A stretch of DNA of 63,706 nucleotides, filler included, from Circinaria calcarea (Eukaryota): the NCBI GenBank assembly GCA_051942165.1. It is 4 parts of 4 records of this genome, joined end to end, with 100 filler letters (N's around TTAATTAATTAA, not from the genome) between each part and the next. Parts side by side here need not be neighbours in the genome. Positions count along the whole stretch, not along the records: positions 31,951 to 47,789 come from JAVECS010000348.1; 3 more parts are not named here. One strand, written 5' to 3'. The notes below the pieces were generated by a model. That model saw only the letters and a list, made by a program, of their open reading frames with translations, did not search any database and was not told the DNA's origin. Both the position numbers and the translations under genes were made by a program. Below, one piece after another: positions 15,883 through 47,889 of the stretch (position 1 is the first letter of the stretch; every line of letters begins with the position of its first letter).

Positions 15883-15982
15883 NNNNNNNNNNNNNNNNNN
15901 NNNNNNNNNNNNNNNNNNNNNNNNNNTTAATTAATTAANNNNNNNNNNNNNNNNNNNNNNNNNNNNNNNNNNNNNNNNNNNN
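15883..15982. other. Artificial contig-joining spacer (N44-TTAATTAATTAA-N44)
   Basis: Exactly 100 bp; the 12-mer has stops in all six frames; identical to the other two spacers. Confidence 0.97.
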
Positions 15983-31850: not shown

Positions 31851-31950
31851 NNNNNNNNNNNNNNNNNNNNNNNNNNNNNNNNNNNNNNNNNNNNTTAATT
31901 AATTAANNNNNNNNNNNNNNNNNNNNNNNNNNNNNNNNNNNNNNNNNNNN
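31851..31950. other. Artificial contig-joining spacer
   Basis: N44-TTAATTAATTAA-N44. Confidence 0.97.
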
Positions 31951-33940: not shown

Positions 33941-34774
33941 TTACGCCGTCGCCACGTCCGGCGGTCTGCGATACTCAATGTGCCAAGCGTTCGGATCTCT
34001 CAGATTAACGTAAAAATCCGGCATAATACTCTTAAGCTGCACCCTCATCCACCCGACATCTTTTTCTGTGCATCCTTCAATAGCAGGGTGATCTTCGCTA
34101 TCTTCATCATCAGTGAACTCGTCGCCCTCATCCTCCGCTATCACCTTAGGCCCAGTCTCGTGCTGTTGTCGCTGTTGCATTGTAGCTTCCCGTGATTCCC
34201 AGTCACCCTTGATTAATTTGACCCAACCCTCGCCTTCTTCCGAGATTACGCTCTGGAGTGAAGCTTCGTCAACCTGAATACAGAACCTATACCTCAACGG
34301 CAATCTCGAATCCCACGGCGGCGCTTCCTGCCGTCGGCTTTCAATCTCCTCTCGCGAACCCTGTTCCTCGTGGACCATGCGTGCGCACCACTCAGTAAAG
34401 TGTCGACGTACAGCCTGCGTAGTCGCCCCGTCAAGCATGCTCGCATCAGCAATCACGGTGAGCTTGAACCGTCCCTCTTCGAGCAGATCGTGCCCATTAT
34501 ATAAGTCCATGGCCTTTCGAATCGATGCATTGATGCGCCGAATGCACAATTCCCATGCCGAGTTGCTCGTATACGTGCAGCGATACACGACAAAGCCCCA
34601 GATACGGTGGCCGTCGACGCGAAGTTGGCGTTCAATGTTGTCGGCAGCGTTGAACTGGGTGGAGATGGTGTTGGGGGTGCGAGGAGAGGTGTCAACAGGT
34701 CGTTGGAGGGCCGCGCGATCTTGGTCCAGGCGGTTCATAAGGGCTTCAAGCTGGCGCATGTTGTCGGTGGCCAT
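33941..34774 (-). CDS. Uncharacterised intracellular fungal protein (WGFVVYRCTY family), ~277 aa
   Basis: Intronless, GC-rich ORF; likely ATG at 34774 (MATDNM). Motifs WGFVVYRCTY..W, VRRHF.EW, RY.FCIQVDE.SL.SV, GWM.V. No signal peptide. Confidence 0.8.
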   Translation of the reverse strand: MATDNMRQLEALMNRLDQDRAALQRPVDTSPRTPNTISTQFNAADNIERQLRVDGHRIWGFVVYRCTYTSNSAWELCIRRINASIRKAMDLYNGHDLLEEGRFKLTVIADASMLDGATTQAVRRHFTEWCARMVHEEQGSREEIESRRQEAPPWDSRLPLRYRFCIQVDEASLQSVISEEGEGWVKLIKGDWESREATMQQRQQHETGPKVIAEDEGDEFTDDEDSEDHPAIEGCTEKDVGWMRVQLKSIMPDFYVNLRDPNAWHIEYRRPPDVATA

Positions 34775-35112
34775 TTTCGACGCGTGAATCCTGCTATGTG
34801 TACAGCTGAATGTATGAAATCGTTGACCTGTACGGTGAAGTGAGAGGGGCAAGGTAAGAGGGTCAAATGAGGTCACACCTCGTAATGAAATGGATGTAGG
34901 GCGTTTGCAATGCAGGAGATTAAAGTAGGTGAGGATAGCGTTGATTGTAGCCCTTCGCATCATGTTATTGTTAGCCGTAACATACTGGTACTAAGCGATT
35001 CAAGCTCAGGAGAAGGCAGAGCGTATTATGGAAAGCCGCCGGGCTTTCCAACGCCGGCGCGGACATACTAATACCCGGAGACGACAGGGACCTGGCTGTC
35101 AAGGTTGACTTA

Positions 35113-35417
35113 ATTGGGAGGTTGAAGTGGTTTTCGTTATATTAACCTAATGTAATGTAGGCTCGGAATAATAATACCCCCAGCCAATCATACCCTGCTT
35201 AAAAAGGAGCCCCAGCTTAGTATTATATAGCTCCATTATGATTCTACAACGGAGCTATGTAAATTTAATGGACCTATTCTGGCTAATACGGAAACGAGGA
35301 TTTCGCGTGAATAAGGTATGCCTGTCACCTGAACCTTATTATATTAAGCTAGGGTATCGGTGCCGGCCTTCCGTACATAATAAACTCATAATAAAAAACC
35401 ACCAAAACCTCCCAAAT
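35113..35417. mobile_element. Putative MITE/non-autonomous DNA transposon relic
   Basis: Left end TTGGGAGGTTGAAGTGGTTTT and right end AAAAAACCACCAAAACCTCCCAAAT are imperfect inverted repeats around ~300 bp of AT-rich non-coding DNA. The first ~60 bp recur at 32715-32777. Confidence 0.55.
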
Positions 35418-35450
35418 ATTATTTATATGCATTATATCTGCGCTAAAAAT

Positions 35451-38400
35451 TCAGGCCGGCCTCGACCTTGGATCTACCACCCTATGATGACGACTATGAG
35501 CATGAGCATGGCTGTGGCTGTAAGCATTCGGTACGACATCCTCTCTAGGCAGGACCTTTTTACCACCCATTGACCTCTCCCACACCTCTTCATTAAGTTC
35601 AAGCCTTAACATCTCCTCCACATCTACCACCGACCAAGACTCGCCATCGATAACATTTCTCTTACTCCCTCCAGGCGGTGGCAACAACGGTATCTGCGGC
35701 AGCGTCGGCGCTACCATCTTCTTGATATTGTCAGCGAACTCACTCAGCTGCGCCGTAAGCACAGCCGTGGTCGCCGCCGTCGGCCTGCCCGCATCGACCG
35801 CCGCCTTGTTAGCATCATAGATCGCCTGAGTAGCAATGCGAATGGCGTCCATCGCCCACTTCTGCCCGTTAGCGCCGACCGTGTCGGAGAAGTCGGCGAA
35901 CCAGGCGTCCCACCAGTTCACAAGCGTGTAAATGCCAGTGACCTGCTCGACGTAGCCGAGTTGGGTGCGCATCTGCATGTTGACGGCGACCCATGCTGAT
36001 GATATCTTGGGCGCATTAAGGTACTCGAAAACGGCGAATCCCTGTGGTACATTATATCCCTGTGAGTTTTGTTGTCCCACTAGTAGCGCATAAAAAAAGG
36101 AATAGAATCATATTTTTCTAAAGAATAGAAACTCAACGATCGAGGGAGTTGCCAGACTACTTACCGTTCTGATGGATGAAAGCAGCTTGTCTGCCGCTTT
36201 CTGTGTATCGAGCTTCATAGCGTCTTCGGCCAAATTCTGAATAATAGTCAAACTGACGGGCGCTGCCCTTAAACTAAACACTTTGCCTTTGGCAATATTA
36301 ACCGACTTTTCGAGAAGACTGAATGGTGCTCGATAGCCATTGGAGCCTAAAGAATGCATGATACGGTCATTAATAGTATTAGGCCGTGGTCCGTATTGCG
36401 AGCCGATGCGCGGGAAATCACTCAGTGCGGTGTTAACTGTGTTCCATTTATTAAAAAAGGACTGGCTGATAGTTGCAAGACGAGCACGATTGCCGGATGG
36501 TAAAATGCCGGTGAACATGGATACAAGGAAACTTGTAGCAATAACTTGTCGCTGTCCTTTCCATCAGCAATGATGTATATAACAATGAGGAAAGCGCCGC
36601 GCAGAGCTGCAGATAACTTACATCAATTACATGCTCAGACTCCAACCCTGCCCGAATGATGGAGTCCGGGGCTGGGATAACAACGCTCACGGTCTGGAGT
36701 GCTGGCCCGAAGCAATATAGCTTAGCCAGCCGGAATGCCAGTGGGATGGCCTGCGTGGCGAGACGCGTAGTGTATAGCTTCGTTGGCCCCGGATAACCCA
36801 ATGCCCTTACCGTAACCACTGGTCCTCCGGGAGGTGGAGTATAGTCCTGTGAATTGCCTCGTTTGACCAAGACTTTGCGACTGCTATTTATATCATCACG
36901 CCTGGACAGACTGTCGCCGTCGCCATAGTCGATAGGAGGGCAATATCCTGGTATCACATCGCACATGTCTGACGCACATGTAGCTGGCTTGGACTCTATC
37001 CGACCAATCTTGCAACATGCTGCCTTGTCCCGGCCCCAGGAGCATGCCCCGCTGCTAGTACTAGGGTCGCCATAGGGATCCCGGGCAAGCTCAACCTCAT
37101 CCTTGCCGCAATGAACGTTCACACAGTCGCTACCATCACCAACCCAATGACACTCGCTCACAGGCGCGGGGTCGAGACAGCAGTAAGTCTTGTAGCGACC
37201 GAACCAACAGTCGTCATAGTACTTGAACATGGGCGTGCTACCAGGCAAGCAGCTGTCGTGGCAGGGAGTCAACGAGCATTTTTTCATGATCGCCGCATAA
37301 TCAGGAGCCACGCAGCAGAACGCCTTGCGACCCCTTTTACATTTATTAGTATCACCATCATTAGTGAAACCTCCCCCCCATGAAGACACTATGCCGGCCA
37401 CGTTAATCTCGCCTTCGTAGCACGCACCGCTGCAATCACCGCCTATGCCGCCGGTATTGTCGCCTCGCCATTTGCAGCTGGTTGGTACGCCGAGGGTAGG
37501 ACAACATATCGGCTTGCCGTAATGATGGTTCTTTTTGCCGCAGCCCGCGTCGTCCCAGCCTACGACGGTGTAGCCAGCGCCGCAAGCGTCCGCTAAAGCC
37601 TGGTTGTTATTGAGATCCTTACAATCTCCGTCGTATTTTTTGCAGCCCTCACCTGTCTGTCCCTTAACGCTTTCAGTCAAGGATAACTGCTCAGCCTTTC
37701 GCAATAAGTCTATAGTGTCTTGTAGCGAACTTGTGGAGCTGATAGTCCTTCCTAGCAATGCAGAATGGGCCGAATACTTGTCGTCATCCAAGTCGGAAGC
37801 CCAGATCAGAGAACCACCAAGTCCTACTTTATTCGCCCAGTCGACCTTCTGCTTGAACGTTACTGAATCATCATATGATATCCATTGCGTGTTGTCAAAG
37901 ACAAGGTAGTTGACAGCAGCGTCGGTGTCATGGACAGGTGTTACGCCGCTTTTCAGGACTTGCTGGATCTCATAGAACCCGAGATAACCTCCCGTTGCAG
38001 TACAGGGACCTGTAATGTTGATCAGCTATAGCCTTGAGAACCTCGAGCTAAACAGCCAAGATCAGCCTATCTATAAGACTCCGCTAGGATAGCCACGCCG
38101 TCACGTTTGCGAATTAGGCATGATATATCGAGAGTCGCCGAAGTCTCTTAACGTGAGTAAGGGGCTTATAGGTAGGCAACTCCCCACGACTCTGTACACG
38201 GCTTACAACTGAGTATGCACCAATGAGAGCAATAGCAATGACTCTGCTTGATCGATGCAGCATCTACGAAGCGCATCGCGTGTGTCTTCGCTCTTGGGGG
38301 TGAATTTCGCGCTGTAGGGAACGAGTTGAGTTGACTTACCAGGATTCGAAGCACCACTGAAAGGGCGCCCAGGCTTAGAACAGCTTGCATCAGCCAACGT

Positions 38401-39765
38401 GAAAGATCGGCCGTAGAAGCCGAAGCCTAACACGACCTTGCTCGGTGGAACGCCGACACGCCAAAGCAGCTCGGTGGCAAGCTTGATTTCTGTAAGATTT
38501 GTATGGCCCTGAACGATGCTGCCGATTGGATTCCCAGCGTCCCATATCCCGTGAAGATCGTAGGTCATGAAGTTGATCCAGTCGGAATACTTGAGCATGT
38601 TGGGAAGGTCAAACCAACGCAAATACCAGAACGAACTTGGTGCAGTAAAGGTAATGCCATATTTGCCTGCCAGAATACGGGTTAGTTTAGAGTGGAAGGA
38701 AGATGGCTAAAGCTTCAAGCTGTGTGTACCTCCCGATCCGTCAAATGTCGACCTTAGCGTCTTGAGGAGCTGCACGTAGTTTGCGGTGTCCTCCTTCTTC
38801 CCGCCTCGGTCAGGCGCTCCCGGATATTCCCAGTCGAGATCCACGCCATCGAACCCGTGTTGTTGCATGAAGTGAACCAGATTGTTGGCGAAATTCTGAC
38901 GCTTCCCAGCATCTGCTGCAATATCGCCAAAGACAGGTTGAGTAGCGGTGTTGTTGTCCGAGAACGTCCATCCGCCAATGCTCACCCATATCTCAAGGTC
39001 AGGCTTGATGGATTTCAGTGTTGTCAGGTCATCGAACAGACTGCTAGGTGTTGCTGAGTCCATAGTCACTATCTGATATGATACCGGGTCGATGTATGCA
39101 AAGGCGTAGTTGATATGTGTGAGCGCATCCAAGGGCAAATTGGTCGGCCCTACGTTGTGGCATGCTTTGCTGTTGCTCCAGGACTCGTAGTATCCAATAA
39201 CCTTATCGAAGACTTGGCCAGTCCCTCCACCCGGTGGAGATGGATGTTGAACACAGTTGCTCTGGCACTTGTCGTCGCAGAAGTCTCGCGTGGTTCCACA
39301 GAAACCTAAGGATTGACTCTTAGCTTCATGGTACGCTGAAACCTACCAAGGCTTTCCACCGAGAAACATACCATATTGCGAGCAGCAGACGTTCAAGGGA
39401 CACTTTTTTCCAGGGTCAGAGGCGTACCGTCCGCATTCAGCGGTGGCATCGCATTGACTGAGGCACCCAGCTCCGCAATACGTCGGACCATAACCACAGT
39501 AGCCGGATGCTCCACAGCATGCACCGTTTGAGCAGGGTGCGCTGGCACTGCATGTGTAATCTTCTCTTCGTATCAGGCTGGCGTTGGAAACGAGAATAGA
39601 GTCATCTGCGAAGCCAGAGTTCTCTATGTGTCGAGCCGTGATCACGCTGGATGTTGGCCTGACGCTAGGGTTGTTATACCAATTTAGGGCGAAAAGCACA
39701 AATGCTCCTACCGCTAGTAGACTAGGAAGTTGGGCGCCCGTTCTCCATGATTTTTCTTGAGCCAT
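35451..39765 (-). CDS. Subgroup-C (killer-toxin-like) GH18 chitinase, ~1200 aa, 6 exons: signal/anchor, 2 CBM18, GH18, Cys-rich repeats, C-terminal unknown domain
   Basis: Hevein motifs (CCGASGYCG; CPLNVCCSQYGFCG), SIGGW, intact catalytic FDGVDLDWEYP, MTYDLHG.W, GFGFYGRSF, WISYDD, IWASD.DD. Splicing at five GT-AG introns keeps one frame to TGA at 35451. Confidence 0.95.
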
Positions 39766-41657
39766 GGCTCTTAAAGTATCACTCTGAACCAAGAAGCTTT
39801 AAGACAAGTAATTATAAAAAGGGGGAAAGGAAGAATGGAAAGGATATTCAGTTAAGAAATAAATATCCCATCCGCCGAAGATGTCAAAAGCGTTTTTTGG
39901 GGATAGGTTTCCGAAGTAATAGGAGTCCGAGTAGGGAGAAGGGCGGTAGATCAGCCTGACCTATAAAGCGTATGTTCAATTAATCCTGCATGAGCTCAAC
40001 CCAGGATCAATAACCCTGTTGGTGCCCCCTACCCTAATGATGGCGCAATACAAATTATGTTTCCCGATGCTCGTCCGGCTAAAAGGGCTTGAGAATGGGT
40101 GGCACTTACCTAGAAGCGTGCTGAATGCGCGCATCTTCGTCCTGCAATATCCGGTAGAACCTTCATTTCCATAGATATAGTAGAGCGTAAGCAGCATCCT
40201 TTTCGTGCTTAAATTGTGGCGCCTTAGCCATAGCAGTAAGAGCCATTATGCCCTTGCGACTCCGAAGACCGTGTGTGTGTGCTTGAGTAAGCAAGATCTT
40301 AGTATGTATGTGCTTGAATAAGCAAGGTCTTGGTGGAATCTGTTTAATAAGTGCATATGCCTTACATCCAAATGCTATAGAGCTTATGGCGTCATTAGTA
40401 AAGGTAGAATCATAAAAAAGGGTTGCACTGACTCCAAGGAGCTCCGACCTCTATTGGCCGTCGGGTACGGAGTACCTTGCATGCGGCCCGACCCTTCGGT
40501 ATATGCAGGGGGAACGTGATGGAGATTGGTACCTGCAGTACGAACGGCTCTCCCCTGATTATTGCAGAGCTTGGTTGGCACGTAGGGCGGGGGTTATCCG
40601 AAAGCCTGATTAATTAGATATGGAGTTTCATATTGCCTCTCATGCCTCTCTTCCAGAATATGACGATGCGGCTGAAGAATGTGAGGCCGCGGCGTTGAAC
40701 CTTGCAGCCAAATCTCGGCTGGTGGCCTCTCGAGGAGACTACGGTCGGCCTAACCGTAGCATCTAATACTGTTGGTCCTTCGAAGCGCCCGTCGTGATCG
40801 ACATGGCCAATACAGAATGAAAGCGCGTGTGCGCGCAGAATGGCTGCAGGCGGGGAATATCACCAAGATTGGGTTCAAATCCCATGAGCGCTTTTTGGTG
40901 GCCTGGTGGTACCCCCGTCCTGTTTTCTCAGAGGGCTTAGAGATTGATTCGGCGGCGAATTGCTAAGCTACCCCCTGTAAACCCTGTAATTACTCGGTAT
41001 GACTCAAACCCAGCCTTTCAACGTGGTATTCCATGCTTTTAACCCCTTCCAACACCAAATCCAATTCGACTTCTACCCAGCCTTCCAGCACGGCGACAGC
41101 AGGGCAATTGAGAGAAGCGACAGCGAGATTAATTAAACTAATCGGAGGGCGTGAATATAATGGCCAGGGGGGGGTGGCATGGGGCATTTCAGTAAGACGT
41201 AATTTACATGGTTAAATGCAGCAGAATAGTAATTACAGGGATTTAGTTTAGCAATTCACCGTTGATTCGGGCCTTCTACCAATGCTAGGCTATCTCGGTA
41301 ATGCATGTTATAATTTGCATCACGACTTGCTCCACTATAAAACGCAGGGGCTGGACTGATCATCATCTAAAATTTCGTACATTATGCCAGCCGAACCTAC
41401 AGGGCAGCCGTGCAGATTTTGCCTGCTATGCCATAGCTCTGTCTATGTCAGCCTTAATAATATTATATCCCCTTTCCTGTATTCACTGGTTGATGCGCAC
41501 CGACCTGATATTGGTCGATTTTTTTCAGACTATCCACCTCAAACCGATCAGCTCGAGTGCTAGTTATTTTTGCTGCCGTTAACTGGCATAAATCTTCAAA
41601 AGTTCCGGACTCAAAGCCCTTGCTTGTTACGGTGAGGCCTGAGAATTGGACGATACG

Positions 41658-44441
41658 ATGATCTGTCCTCAAGCCTCTCTTCTTGCCGTCGTTACGGTTT
41701 CCATTCGATCAGTATGGGCGCAACAGCTGAAAGACGGGTTGCCCGCCTTTATGAGCTATCCTGGCATTAGCACGAGTTGCGAGACAGCGCTGAATACCAC
41801 TGTCAACTGTCCGGCCTTTTTAGCGAGGGCATCAAGCCAGTGAGTTGCTCACTAAGCCGATGAATTACTCACTAAGCCGACCGATCGTGTTGACGCATTA
41901 GGCAGATGCAAGGGTGTAATGATGACTGATTTATATCTAGAAATACCATCTTGGACTCGAACCAAGTTGGCGCTCTGTGCTCGGGTTCCTGCGCTACAGA
42001 CTTGCAGTCTGCGAGAACGAAGATAGCAGATGCATGTACTGCGAGTACAGATGTGATTGTCTACAGCAACATAGCGTATCCGGCAACGTTCATCGTGGAC
42101 CAGTACCTCTTCACTTCCAAAGTGTCTTGTTACCAAGATAGGTGAGTACGCCCGCATCGCTAGCCCGCAAGATGCTAACATCGTGGTTAGCTCGACAGGT
42201 GAATACTGCGACCCGCAGTTCCTTGCATGGTCCAACGAGAGCACCTTGACCAGCAATCAGAGCTGTTCGAACTGCTGGCTTGGAATACAGGCGCTTCAGC
42301 TCGGCAACCCGATTGGCTACGATGAGGGTTTGGCAAGCGACTTTACCGCCCTGGCGGCAAGCTGCGGTGCCAGTGGGTACACATATGCTACACCTACCGC
42401 CTACGGTATCAACCTTACTGCAACTAGTACTGGCACTGCTCAGTTCACCAACCCGCCAATGTGCACTGGCTCGTACACTCTCCAGCCGAGCGACAGCTGT
42501 AACTCCGTAGCCAAAGCTATGGGTGTATCTACCTACAGCATGCTGTACGCCAATGGACTCGATATCTACTGCCAGAACTTCGACGCAGCCATCAATAGTA
42601 GCGCCAGTCTCTGCACACCGCCAACCTGTAAGACATACACGTGGGGTCCATACGACGCCTGCAGCGACGTTGCCAGCCAATACGGAATCAGTCTTGCGCA
42701 CTTCTTAGCCTGGAACCCAAACTTCAACTCCATATGCCGGAATGCGATCAACTTCGTCGGATATCAGGTCTGCGTCTCGTGAGTCTCCCTGTTATTGCTA
42801 AAATCGCGGTCTGTTGTGCCTTATTCGACAACGCCCTTTTCTGGAATGCTTGTGTTGTCAGCTGGGGGGTTATAGAGCTCAGACACCTCACCTATATAAC
42901 CTAGGTCGTGGTATTCGATCTGACAATACAGCCTTCAATGCAATTAAAGCAAAATGGCTTATCATATGTGACCTCATGACTGGACACACGCTAATGTCTA
43001 CTATGGTAGTTCACCAGGAGGAACCATCGACTCCGGCGCTTCAACAAACCTCAGCGTGTCGACTGGCGCCTCTAGTGCTCTGCCAGCACCAACAAACTCG
43101 TTCCCTGAGACGAGAGAGTGCGGTGGATGGTATACGGTCAGCGCACCCCAAACTGCTGAACGGCGAGTCATACCAGAAACATAATATGCTGACCCTCTCG
43201 CAGGTCCAAGCTAGAGACGATTGCGGCGTACTTTCGATTGCATACTCGATAACACTTTCGGACTTCCTCTTCCTTAACCCCGAGGTCTACTCCAACTGTA
43301 CCAACTTGCTTCTCGGTGTCGCTTACTGCGTCTTTCCCGTGGGCAATATCGCCACCTATTCTGGATACAAAGCTCCTCCTACAATGTCGATTACCGTTCC
43401 GCCGGCAACATTTTCTTCTGTGAACACTGCGAATCCGTCCACGACGAATCATCCCAATCCAGGGTACAGATTCCAACAGCTGCCAATGGCCTCGGGCACA
43501 GTCCAAGGATGCGCATCGTATGCCAACTATAATAATAACACTACGGACGGCAGTTTCAACTCGTGTAGCTATATTGCCTACGCTTATGGGGTCGATTTTT
43601 CTGATCTTCTCACGTGGAACCCTAGCCTATCGAAGAACAAAACAGACTGTACGTTCCAGCCAGGCTACAGTTATTGCGTACAGAAGACGAATACCACAGC
43701 GTATGTCCCGTCTAATAGCAATTGTGTTTCGGTCAACGCCACCGAGATCCAGGGCGGCACCGATTCCAATTGTGTTTGTTTCACAGAAGTGTCAGGTTAT
43801 GACGGGACTGTGGGCGTAAACTGCGCCTCTGTCGCAGACGATGCGTCGATTAAGCTTTCGCAACTCACAACTTGGAACTCGTGGCTCGGGTCAGCCTGCG
43901 ATACCGCTCTGTTCGCGAACCTCGATGAGAACGACTTGCGTGCTGTATGCATTGGCGTCAACTCTACCGCACATATGGCTACTATAACGAATCCTCCTTC
44001 GACAGCCTCGACGCCTACAGGAACTAAAAGCTCCGCCTCGATGGGTGTGCTCCGCCTTAATAAGTCACGCGAGACCATGTGCTAACGAGGTTTTAGGTCC
44101 TACTCAAACGGGCGTCATCTCCAGCTGCCAACAGTATTACACGGTACAGTCTGGAGACAGCTGTGCCGCAATTGAAGGCATGTTCGCGATCTCTTTTGCG
44201 GCCTTCTACGAATGGAACCCAAGCAGTAGGTACCCTCCTTGACTAAAAAGAATTCAATGCGGTTAGGGGCTACACAAGCTAACGCGATTTGTAGTCGGAT
44301 CGAACTGTGAGAACCTATGGCTAGGGTAAGGCTAATTATTTTTTAAAATATATTGCCATCGCGTTTTACTAACGTTCAGATAGCTATGCGTACTGCGTTA
44401 GCGCTCCCTCTAGTGCCCTGAAACCAAAGGAACGACGTTGA
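41658..44441 (+). CDS. Secreted multi-LysM (CBM50) protein with ~6 Cys-containing fungal LysM domains, multi-exon
   Basis: Signal peptide MICPQASLLAVVTVSIRSVWA; N-terminal Cys-rich region; LysMs such as YTLQPSDSC..., F.AWNP, FLFLNPEV..NCTNL..G.AYCV, LLTWNPSL, LTTWNSW, YTVQSGDSC..FYEWNP..NCENLWLGYAYCV; stop at 44439-44441. Confidence 0.93.
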
Positions 44442-45013: not shown

Positions 45014-47789
45014 TCAAACAGTACTTAGTTCGCTAGACTGATCTTCTTCCTCCCTTGATCGTTCCTCTTCCGATCGTTCTTCTTCCGATGATGTTTCGTC
45101 AACTTCCGTACCTCTGACGTACGGATTCACTTCTATATCTTTCATTCTGGCATTATTTTTCCATTCCGCTTTAAGTTCCTTGATAAGATCCGAGTACAGA
45201 GAGAATGTTCCCTTACAGCTTTCGCAGGGAGGACAGTCAGAATCGTCCCGGCACATTGGAGGTACGCATGCATGGCAAGGCATCAGATACTTCTCAATGC
45301 AACACGGAGTGTGAAGAGAAGCAGGGCATGCGCGCCCAACCCTAGCACTGGAAAGATCATCTAGAGAACCCACGAAGGTCCCTTTAGACCCAAAGGTGTT
45401 GAGCTGAGTCTGAAGTAAAACTGATTGATAGTTTTGACACGGTCGGAAATTGGGTGTAGTGAGAGCATCATTAGGTGTCTCAGTAGTATCATCTTGACAA
45501 GGGATAATCAAAACACGCCACCTATAGTTATTCACCATTGTATGCACAGTACAAAGTAGACAAGTGTTCTTCTACAGTATGATGGCTTGGAATGGAGGTC
45601 CTTTTCCTTTTATTGGATCCCTTGTACATGACAGCCACTGACCCTCCGCAGTACGGATCACGTGCGAGTAGGTTATCCTAAGACCGCTGTTGGTAGGAGA
45701 GTATTGAACAGCTGGCCCGACAGCTTCGAATTTGTCAAAGATTGAAAAAGGGGCCCATGTTTCAACCGGGGGCCGAGAAGGAAATAACCGCAATACACTC
45801 CCATGCATCATCAACGGCATTTGTTGGTAATGCGTGCAGGGCGCCGTGATATAAATATGTGGGATGTCGCGAGATATTTCGATGGGATTTACTGGGACCC
45901 ACTTCTTCCTGCGGGTGAGGAACTCGAGCCTCAGCCATAATGTTCGCTCAGTAACACTAAAGGTGCGCCGAAGCTCGGCAGGCTCCAAACCGGCCACGTG
46001 ACACGGACGTAGTTCTGGTCCAGTAGTTTTGGAACAGTCATTGATGACTTCCAAAGTCTGAACCTGATCCGTATCGATTGTTTCAACCCTTATGCTCCGA
46101 ATGGACGAGTTCTCGTATACGATCCGACCCAGCCGGAAATCAAGATATCTCCCTCCCAATTCTAAGATTGAATGTTCCGCCACAATAGAGCGAAGAACGA
46201 CTATTCCGTCGAAATCAATCCCGGCCCAGTCCGAGGTTATGAATTTCTGCTTCAAAGTGTTTGTATCATGATTATCCGTACATGTAATGACAGCGCTGGT
46301 GAGATCATCCGGAAAGAGATCCGCGGGCTTATCATTGTTAGTTGTTCCTGCTTGATAAAAGTAACGTACGGATAATGATGTGAAGGAGGCACCCCAGTCC
46401 GAAAACGCCAGTCTTGCCGCTATGTCCACTGCCTTTATAACCACACGGCATATATGTTGGCGTACACTTGAAGGGTGCTTCATGAAGGCAAGACCGTTTT
46501 GAACATCACCATCATTGGCCATGTTGCTCCCCCGACGCAGAAAGGAGTCTGAGCGATTCTGGATATAGTCTTCTAGCCGTGACGGTGCCTCCCCGTAGTT
46601 GGCTTTTCCGTCAGATCTACCCCACTCACCTCCCTCCGGATCTTCTGAATCTTCTGAAACTCCTGTTTCACTCGTGTATTCCGAGCTTCCCAACCCCTTC
46701 GGAGATATCCCTAGGATTTTCTTGGCCGCTTCTGGATCTAGAGGCTCTGTTCTAAGGCCCACACAATAATAATCAGGGCAACCCCATCGTGCTTCAAACG
46801 TATAGTCATCGAGAGTACCAGGTATAAAGCCTAGAATCTCTAAGATTCGTAAACCTCGAGTCCGCAGCTCTGCAAGAACATACAAAGTGTATTCACAGAG
46901 CCTAGCCGTACACTCCGTCTCGTACATCCCTTTGTCACGTTGGTATGGATAAAAGAAATTATCTGCGAGCTCTGAAATGGCATTCATCATTTCTAACGCA
47001 GCAAATTCACACAGAACTGGGAAGTCAGGCATCTTCCGTAATTCTGGACAGTTCACGTCCAGAAAATTTACAATTGAACAGTCGACACTCCACCCTTTTC
47101 TCTCGAGACCTTCCGACTCTAATGAGATGAAGTCTTCCAAGTTGCCTGTTCGAGAAGTCTCGCACGTATTGGCAAGGGCCGAAGATGAAATCCGGATCAC
47201 CACTCTAGCCTCCTCGTACGTCCCGTTGACAGGTAAAGTACAGCCAGAGGCGTCGATTGCGCAAGTTGGAAGGCCGAGGACATAGGACGCATATGTAGCC
47301 ACCCAGGCAGCTCCAGTAATGCCCTTGTATGTGAAGATAAGGCCTTGGGTTGAGGTAACCTTGAAAAGCATCTGCAATATCGTGGGTATATCCTTGTCAT
47401 GTGGGATTGCTTCATACGGGTTTTTCATTTGACCTGGGGTCGTCTGCGAACCTTGTCCAAATGCCTGCAGTAAATAGTGATACTGCAAGACCTTTTCTCC
47501 GAATTCGGTCTTCCTTGTAAACGGTAGCAAGGCTTCTCGGAGCTTCCCCAGTTCCCCTATACCGGGAGTATTGTCAAGTGACACCCCGGCGGTGTCGAAA
47601 AGATGCGATAGGATGGTTGTGCAAGATGTTTCATTTAAGATCGAGGTAATCGCCGTCATGAGAGCCACCACATTTTCTCCCGCACGAGTCTTGAGTAACT
47701 GATCCACGAGGAAGTTGGAGGCTGAACCAATCTCAACAGCCTTGAAGTACCAAAAGCGATCTGATCTCTGCTGCTGCCGGACTCTGCTC
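45014..47789 (-). pseudogene. Large uncharacterised fungal protein gene with one in-frame TAG; 5' end cut by the contig end
   Basis: The 711-aa ORF and the 177-aa ORF are in the same frame, separated only by TAG at 45572-45574 (QAIIL*KNTCLLC). The frame is also open upstream to the spacer. Confidence 0.7.
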
Positions 47790-47889
47790 NNNNNNNNNNN
47801 NNNNNNNNNNNNNNNNNNNNNNNNNNNNNNNNNTTAATTAATTAANNNNNNNNNNNNNNNNNNNNNNNNNNNNNNNNNNNNNNNNNNNN
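47790..47889. other. Artificial contig-joining spacer
   Basis: N44-TTAATTAATTAA-N44. Confidence 0.97.

Follow-up and report, generated by a model that had tools for sequence, protein, structure and literature searches.

What the large C-terminal part of fungal subgroup-C chitinases is for, and whether it could be a toxin with an antidote encoded next door, is the question raised by a three-gene locus of Circinaria calcarea (GenBank assembly GCA_051942165.1). The locus occupies positions 33,941–44,441 of the window, by which we mean the whole stretch of 63,706 nucleotides analysed; this part of it comes from JAVECS010000348.1. It encodes a GH18 chitinase with a long C-terminal domain (CTD), a secreted protein with LysM repeats only, and a third protein that we call X. 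Chitinases of this subgroup have been called 'killer-toxin-like' since 2005. The original prediction for this DNA had proposed a polymorphic toxin locus, with the chitinase as carrier of a variable payload and X as a candidate antitoxin. The best-supported result of our analysis is that X is probably a functional partner of the CTD. The reading that we prefer goes further, and we give it a probability of about one half: the chitinase would be a single-chain killer-toxin-like protein whose CTD acts inside cells, X would be its immunity protein, the LysM-only protein would protect the wall of the producer, and orphan copies of X would be defensive. It builds on the anatomy of the genes, the conservation of the CTD, the recurrent linkage of the three genes, and a complex between CTD and X predicted with high confidence.

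The linkage of the three genes recurs across fungi. Scanning metagenome contigs with an alignment of X gave 37 loci, whose partners were sought by tblastn with the window proteins. A chitinase with the CTD is present in 12 of these loci, and a chitinase and/or a LysM-only gene in 17; many of the partnerless loci are too short for the presence of a partner to be judged. Fifteen loci extend for at least 3 kb to either side, a set that includes the duplicate pairs L009=L031, L015=L016 and L017~L018; nine of them have a partner and six have none. From fungal gene density and chitinase copy number, one would expect roughly, at well under 1%, how few random genes have such a neighbour. The arrangement varies: X immediately follows the chitinase in L002, L003, L019 and L015, which is the order of the window, lies downstream of the LysM gene in L004, L006, L007, L008, L009, L010 and L020, and upstream of it in L024, L026, L027 and L028. 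We found no fourth conserved gene, these three being the only families of open reading frames (ORFs) that recur among the loci. The identities of X and CTD to the window proteins move in step (X/CTD 89/81, 69/76 and 67/74%, then 35–39/31–36%), with the GH18 domain at 51–88%. The neighbour thus recurs beside such chitinases and diverges in parallel with their CTD, two points on which checks had been proposed with the original prediction.

In the maximum-likelihood tree of X, at least eight lineages with support contain linked genes. They lie to either side of the midpoint root, and the unlinked genes are nested among them. This distribution suggests an ancestral linkage to the chitinase and LysM genes that was later lost in places. 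Three single-strain named species are common to the two match lists, and in each of them the contig recorded for X has the same length as that recorded for the chitinase: 425,487 bp in Nemania sp. NC0429, 1,003,443 bp in Hypoxylon cercidicola, and 792,455 bp in Durotheca rogersii. The cluster members of ten Aspergillus and Penicillium chitinases, among which locus tags adjoining those of X homologues were sought, included no matching species.

Unlinked X genes, intact ones among them, sit amid housekeeping genes, with no CTD nearby. Some of the X-linked chitinase copies look decayed. Their CTD stretch has two in-frame stops in L007, four in L020 and ten in L019, and in L015/L016 (7201–8926) only the last Cys-rich repeats and the CTD are found, with no GH18 domain upstream. 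X is intact in L007, L015 and L019 and has two stops in L020. Both the orphan copies and those beside decayed chitinases resemble the orphan immunity genes of yeasts, where such copies of Imm are proposed to be defensive (PMC11848437). A HET-domain gene with ankyrin repeats lies 2 kb from the unlinked X homologue of L018 (12948–15197, + strand), probably by coincidence.

The second line of evidence comes from structure prediction. A cognate pair from Nemania was modelled, consisting of the CTD of the chitinase P0067 (814–1187) and X P0012 (68–347, its N-terminal extension removed), which are respectively 74% and 67% identical to the window proteins. The chains were folded without alignments made in this analysis. 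The ipSAE scores were 0.88, 0.86 and 0.88, and the best of three controls reached 0.13. The runs share at least 66% of their contacts, and the partner pLDDT is at least 80. In calibration, 51 of 78 solved complexes reached the pass mark, as did 2 of 108 mismatched pairs; for eukaryotes, the corresponding counts were 39 of 65 for solved pairs with no like complex in older structures, and 2 of 126 for unrelated pairs. The PDB contains no sequence relative of either protein (none was found for the CTD, and a profile search with X gave none at E values up to 10), so the pass is unlikely to reflect memory. On the side of X, the predicted interface involves the N-terminal helix and the C-terminal region. 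On the side of the CTD, it involves helix 161–185 (including 161, 165 and 168–169), helices 266–314, and residues 81–85, and it adjoins the conserved E75/H76 and N164/K167 (numbering of the P0067 fragment, as for the CTD residues below). The binding of X to the CTD is thus predicted with high confidence, in a score that expresses the confidence of the model and is not a measurement. A predicted complex had been proposed as a check on the original prediction; its outcome, with the linkage, supports the neighbour as a functional partner of the chitinase.

The CTD has no match in Pfam, and it is close to universal in these enzymes. With exon 4 as the query, 114 long chitinases were retrieved, 95 of which have the CTD according to blastp and 109 according to a profile built from CTD-only fragments. 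The 109 include chitinases of 1550–1690 aa, in which the CTD is at the very end; P0160, P0163, P0164, P0166, P0167, P0169, P0170 and P0175, in this size range, carry about 600 extra aa, inserted after the Cys-rich region and before the CTD, that belong to no known family. Relative to the window chitinase, the median identity is 65% for the GH18 domain, 41% for the Cys-rich region and 30% for the CTD, which is collinear among relatives and diverges gradually. Its invariant positions are few and polar (C49, E75, N164, K167 and Y215, with H76 and R142 nearly invariant) and fall in the motifs EHPxD, PNDR and NxxKG. Their equivalents in the window are E891/H892 (EH at 36636–36631) and N980/K983. 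The idea of a polymorphic payload does not survive these data: the CTD varies more than GH18, but as one homologous family and not by swapping of domains.

The pattern is in fact the reverse. In P0227 (1016 aa), the CTD stands behind a GH71 alpha-1,3-glucanase (residues 22–404), a Cys-rich stretch and a dibasic EKRAKRRR site. Since GH71 here takes the place of GH18, the sequences indicate a module of Cys-rich region, dibasic site and CTD that is portable between wall hydrolases, and not a repertoire of swapped payloads. A gamma-toxin gene beside a GH71 gene is described in Aspergillus flavus in the accessible text of 10.1101/2024.10.25.620242, and a link to P0227 is possible. A phmmer search with exon 5 against 1.84 billion representatives gave 81 matches, mostly exon-sized fragments that, this GH71 fusion aside, said little about architecture.

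The AlphaFold2 model of the P0067 fragment (pLDDT 90, pTM 0.86) combines an alpha/beta subdomain with a bundle of long helices and has a disordered tail. No specific fold match came from Foldseek or VIA-align, in searches where the helical part filled the lists and the alpha/beta subdomain went essentially unsearched. In the ESM Atlas, the leads to AHH and GmrSD_C had scores of just 0.76–0.77. For X, Foldseek against the PDB returned nothing below E 0.28. The family has sub-threshold Pfam matches to TetR_C_13 (15 of 59 sequences, best E 5e-05) and DUF6924 (6 of 59, best E 0.026). In the ESM Atlas it matched only unnamed Ascomycota clusters, the nearest named family being DUF6924 at 0.87; a literature search found no paper mentioning that family. 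The model of X can be likened to the alpha/beta fold of the HGTP_anticodon type found in class IIa aminoacyl-tRNA synthetases, a resemblance within the range of common arrangements that we take only as a lead. Neither fold, of CTD or of X, points to a function.

The gene for X follows the chitinase gene on the same strand, 0.5 kb beyond the stop codon of the latter. It had been described as an intronless, non-secreted gene of 277 aa. It is intronless and has no hydrophobic segment (maximal KD19 of 0.75, versus 1.73 for the N-terminus of the chitinase), but its length is probably 340 aa. The frame is open for 63 codons upstream of the Met at 34774, and this extension is conserved in 23 of 66 sequences (65 homologues and the window), which favours the longer form and probably makes the 277-aa form an internal start. 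The internal Met is conserved as well, so that two isoforms from two start codons are possible. The extension has many Arg/Lys and Ser/Thr residues and few Asp/Glu; it is basic and amphipathic, and by eye it looks like a mitochondrial presequence.

The chitinase gene (Table 1) has introns of 66, 63, 330, 70 and 105 nt with GT..AG borders. Its product has 1226 aa, or 1220 aa with an acceptor 18 nt further on, which makes exon 6 start at 36041. The model is collinear with the annotated orthologues P0066, P0067 and P0068, and since all three skip the six residues YNVPQG at the exon 5/6 junction, the later acceptor is more likely. The protein has the features of subgroup C: a GH18 domain with an intact DxxDxDxE motif (DGVDLDWE, residues 284–291, 38850–38827), more than 1000 aa, CBM18 at the N-terminus, and one N-terminal hydrophobic segment, the only KD19 window above 1.6 (1.73 at residue 9), which by eye is a putative signal peptide or anchor. 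The last Cys is residue 865 of 1226, so the protein has no terminal Cys. LysM matches were absent from every exon and from the orthologues P0066 and P0067, and PF01476 is listed for none of the 114 relatives. Absence of LysM (CBM50) separates C-I from C-II chitinases in the part of PMC8042737 that we draw on, and the present enzyme is thus C-I-like, on its architecture alone. The gene model, the Pfam matches, the catalytic motif and the conservation of the KR site bear out the earlier description of an intact GH18 chitinase with two CBM18 domains, Cys-rich repeats and a CTD delimited by a dibasic site. We also considered a membrane protein with a cytosolic CTD and rejected it: there is no internal hydrophobic segment, and the stretch in question is a confident beta strand in the model. 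Residue 426 (about 38422–38424) is Arg (KPGRPF) where relatives have a near-invariant Cys (KPGCPF), which is either a true substitution that leaves an unpaired Cys or a sequencing error. Intron 3 (38339–38010), the longest, contains an ORF of 74 codons with a hydrophobic start, probably by chance.

Table 1. Features of the chitinase–LysM–X locus, in window coordinates.
Feature	Position	Strand	Basis and remarks
Gene X, intronless, probably 340 aa from the upstream ATG	33944..34963	-	ORF; stop codon 33941–33943; 65 homologues; model pLDDT 89.9
Subgroup-C (C-I-like) GH18 chitinase gene	35451..39765	-	Splice model, translation, orthologues, Pfam
Chitinase exons (six)	39765-39372, 39305-38730, 38666-38340, 38009-36622, 36551-36165, 36059-35451	-	Splice model
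CTD, residues 817–1226 (410 aa)	35454..36858	-	Invariant columns; AlphaFold2 model of P0067
Dibasic KR site, residues 815–816, putative Kex2 cleavage site	36859..36864	-	VLVKR-GNSQDY; conserved L-E/D-K-R-G at the same boundary in family fragments
Cys-rich repeat region, residues 555–789	36940..37644	-	30 Cys; near-invariant Cys columns in 55 homologues
GH18 catalytic domain	37672..39219	-	Pfam PF00704 on three exon pieces
Two CBM18 (Chitin_bind_1) modules, the second split by intron 1	39253..39552	-	Pfam PF00187, E 8e-11 and 5e-06 (exon pieces)
Putative signal peptide or signal anchor, residues ~1–30	39676..39765	-	Hydrophobicity; by-eye reading
Shared divergent upstream region of the chitinase and LysM genes, candidate regulatory role	39766..41657		1.9 kb; from both gene models
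LysM-only secreted-protein gene, multi-exon	about 41658..44436 (3' end approximate)	+	Frames, splice signals, Pfam LysM

How these pieces would work together can be outlined as follows. The secreted chitinase would bind and open the chitin wall of a target fungus with its CBM18 and GH18 domains. At the conserved KR site, the CTD would be set free or activated, and it would act within cells, in the manner of a colicin-like single-chain toxin. X, intracellular and probably present in both cytosol and mitochondria through its two start codons, would bind the CTD and thereby neutralise it in the producer and its kin, and the LysM-only secreted protein would shield the producer's own chitin. Orphan X genes would serve as defensive copies. 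In this outline we infer Kex2 cleavage, cell entry, toxicity, neutralisation, mitochondrial targeting and LysM shielding. The chitinase is secreted and X is not, therefore they can only meet if the CTD reaches the cytoplasm, and by analogy such a meeting would fit a delivered effector and its antidote. The order of the parts (wall-binding region and hydrolase, Cys-rich linker, processing site, C-terminal domain, and an adjacent partner) likewise recalls colicins and zymocin with their immunity proteins.

A wider proposal, which we hold more tentatively than the preferred reading, is that C-I chitinases and some GH71 glucanases are single-chain, colicin-like killer toxins. They would carry a new effector of the type EH...PNDR...NxxKG, released by Kex2, and would be matched by a new immunity family with a fold like that of anticodon-binding domains, located in cytosol and mitochondria, with orphan copies, and independent of gamma/Imm.

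Several points weigh against the preferred reading. That the CTD is toxic is itself something that we infer; Foldseek and VIA-align found no toxin fold in it; the CTD chitinases turned up in more taxa than X did; and the parallel divergence of X and CTD may come from their shared history only. The alternative that fares best, though we consider it unlikely, accepts that X binds the CTD and takes the CTD as non-toxic. The pair could then serve self/non-self recognition, the sensing of re-imported wall-degrading machinery, or the control of the chitinase in the remodelling of the fungus's own wall. Linkage and predicted binding would suit any obligate pair, the missing toxin fold would need no explanation, and many CTD chitinases appear without X. 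Moreover, the expression of subgroup-C chitinase/LysM pairs is not limited to prey walls but also accompanies the formation of hyphal networks, according to the accessible part of PMC4392113. However, the chitinase has its one hydrophobic segment at the N-terminus and X has none, so that contact would again require entry of the CTD into the cytoplasm, which is how an effector behaves. The orphan copies of X, and those beside decayed chitinases, also suit defence better than a housekeeping role. Even if the CTD is non-toxic, the pair that it forms with X would still account for the purpose of this large part of the protein.

A shade less likely again is a linkage of merely regulatory or historical nature, in which X is a mitochondrial protein with an unrelated function and the complex a false positive. 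The presequence-like extension of X and the homologues found amid housekeeping genes agree with this, and 7 of 44 blindly drawn pairs of neighbours reached the pass mark of the complex test. Yet the false passes reported with the tool scored 0.34–0.59, and the CTD–X complex, at 0.88, is well above them. The linkage, moreover, persists through rearrangement and through divergence to 31–40% identity, and the three genes are the sole conserved content of the loci.

The closest published systems are the nuclear zymocin-like clusters of Heneghan, Salzberg and Wolfe (10.1101/2024.10.25.620242). In the accessible text of that work, the chitinases of the clusters are all C-II and carry LysM; an adjacent gene encodes a small secreted gamma-toxin of 200–300 aa with a signal peptide; a terminal Cys, for the disulfide between beta and gamma, is present in 29 of 31 toxin-linked chitinases; and the Imm genes are homologous to immunity genes of yeast plasmids. 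The same text describes C-I chitinases as devoid of LysM and reports toxin clusters for C-II alone, a branch that was tied to toxin and immunity genes only in 2024. Our locus is like these clusters in being nuclear, in combining a killer-toxin-like subgroup-C chitinase with a LysM-only gene and a non-secreted putative antidote gene, and in forming a compact set of intron-bearing genes at an otherwise ordinary chromosomal site. It differs in that the chitinase has neither LysM nor terminal Cys, in that no gamma-like gene was found in the locus, and in that the candidate active part belongs to the chitinase polypeptide itself, whereas the gamma-toxin is a separate protein. A search for other ORFs of at least 60 aa with a signal peptide between 31.9 and 47.8 kb returned none, although a small multi-exon gene could escape it. 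Given this, the lack of LysM and terminal Cys, and the lack of a fourth conserved gene, we do not file the locus under that cluster type: it is similar in outline, with a fused active domain and a different partner.

A degenerate zymocin-like cluster, in which X belongs to the Imm family derived from virus-like elements (VLE) and the gamma-toxin gene is lost, unrecognised or elsewhere, is improbable for the same reasons, and because the predicted binding partner of X is the CTD of the chitinase itself and not a separate subunit. Furthermore, of the 87 matches to the X profile, none is from budding yeasts and none is a named immunity protein. No relation of X to Imm is detected, as judged from these profile matches and without a direct comparison with Imm. 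The idea draws on two published clusters that have Imm without a toxin candidate, and on clusters in which ORFs without assigned identity are immunity candidates and LysM-only genes are included, both in the accessible text of 10.1101/2024.10.25.620242. Less likely still is that X is not an antidote but cargo, a gamma-like toxic subunit borne non-covalently by the CTD: tight binding is predicted, and the beta part of zymocin carries gamma in the portion of PMC13556262 that we draw on, but X has no signal peptide or hydrophobic segment, and its basic, amphipathic extension is unlike a signal peptide, which speaks against joint entry into the secretory pathway with the chitinase.

The preferred reading, a fused toxin with an intracellular antidote, has further parallels. 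As in the zymocin of Kluyveromyces lactis (alpha/beta precursor, gamma and ORF3 of pGKL1), the carrier is a chitin-binding chitinase with a dibasic site between the enzyme and the C-terminal part, and the toxic part is bound by an intracellular immunity protein, a binding that is predicted for X. Unlike here, the toxic ribonuclease of zymocin is a separate polypeptide, disulfide-linked to beta. The locus also resembles bacterial colicins and polymorphic toxins, which have a part that binds the wall or a receptor, a linker, a C-terminal active domain, an adjacent tight-binding immunity protein, and orphan immunity genes. In contrast to them, it is eukaryotic, relies on secretion through the endoplasmic reticulum, and has a single conserved C-terminal family that is not swapped. 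Beyond the weak AHH and GmrSD_C leads, no relation in sequence or fold to bacterial toxin or immunity families emerged from our searches.

The pairing of a subgroup-C chitinase with a LysM-only gene, which the original prediction had called frequent, agrees with the architecture found here and is known from tac6/tal6 of Trichoderma atroviride, where the chitinase gene adjoins a co-regulated gene for a secreted multi-LysM protein (PMC4392113, accessible part). No third, intracellular partner gene is described for tac6/tal6 in that part. A literature search gave no description of such a gene with C-I chitinase/LysM pairs; it did not cover the supplementary tables of 10.1101/2024.10.25.620242, which perhaps hold comparable ORFs. 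The C-I branch thus gains a concrete partner, a conserved intracellular protein that is linked in many lineages and predicted to bind the near-universal CTD. Should the CTD be an effector with X as its antidote, fungi would possess a second, fused-toxin route of fungus–fungus killing and a second toxin–immunity system, independent of zymocin gamma/Imm. Effector and immunity protein would each represent a new family, with relevance to biocontrol and to the reading of orphan X-like genes.

The LysM-only gene is divergent from the chitinase gene and is conserved next to X and the chitinase at other loci. It had been announced as a divergent gene for a secreted protein with six LysM; the divergent LysM-only gene stands, with four stretches supported by Pfam, and the number six is plausible but includes two repeats seen only by eye. 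The surroundings do not fit an AT-rich accessory contig, as had been claimed: GC content is 0.41–0.53 per 2-kb window and 0.49–0.51 across 34–44 kb, and the genes on the two flanks encode RRP5, a RabGAP, a GT4 glycosyltransferase, DcpS, Cef1 and an amino-acid permease, which argues that the region is not accessory.

The proteins of the cluster are highly similar across fungal classes. X is 82% identical to its homologue in Endocarpon pusillum and 74% to those of Xylariales, and chitinase exon 4 is 79% identical in Lasiosphaeria and 68% in Hortaea; other clades of X are at merely 31–40%. This similarity between classes hints at horizontal movement of the cluster. Further along the window, an ORF of 738 aa and an adjoining one of 185 aa in the same frame (45017–47788, - strand) match no Pfam family, have no counterpart at any X locus, and lie outside the conserved trio. 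Three pairs of N-runs (44 N in each run) are spaced by about 15.9 kb, at 15883–15982, 31851–31950 and 47790–47889, a regularity that points to masked stretches more than to gaps of the assembly, and one pair interrupts the 5' end of a large ORF at 45572–47833.

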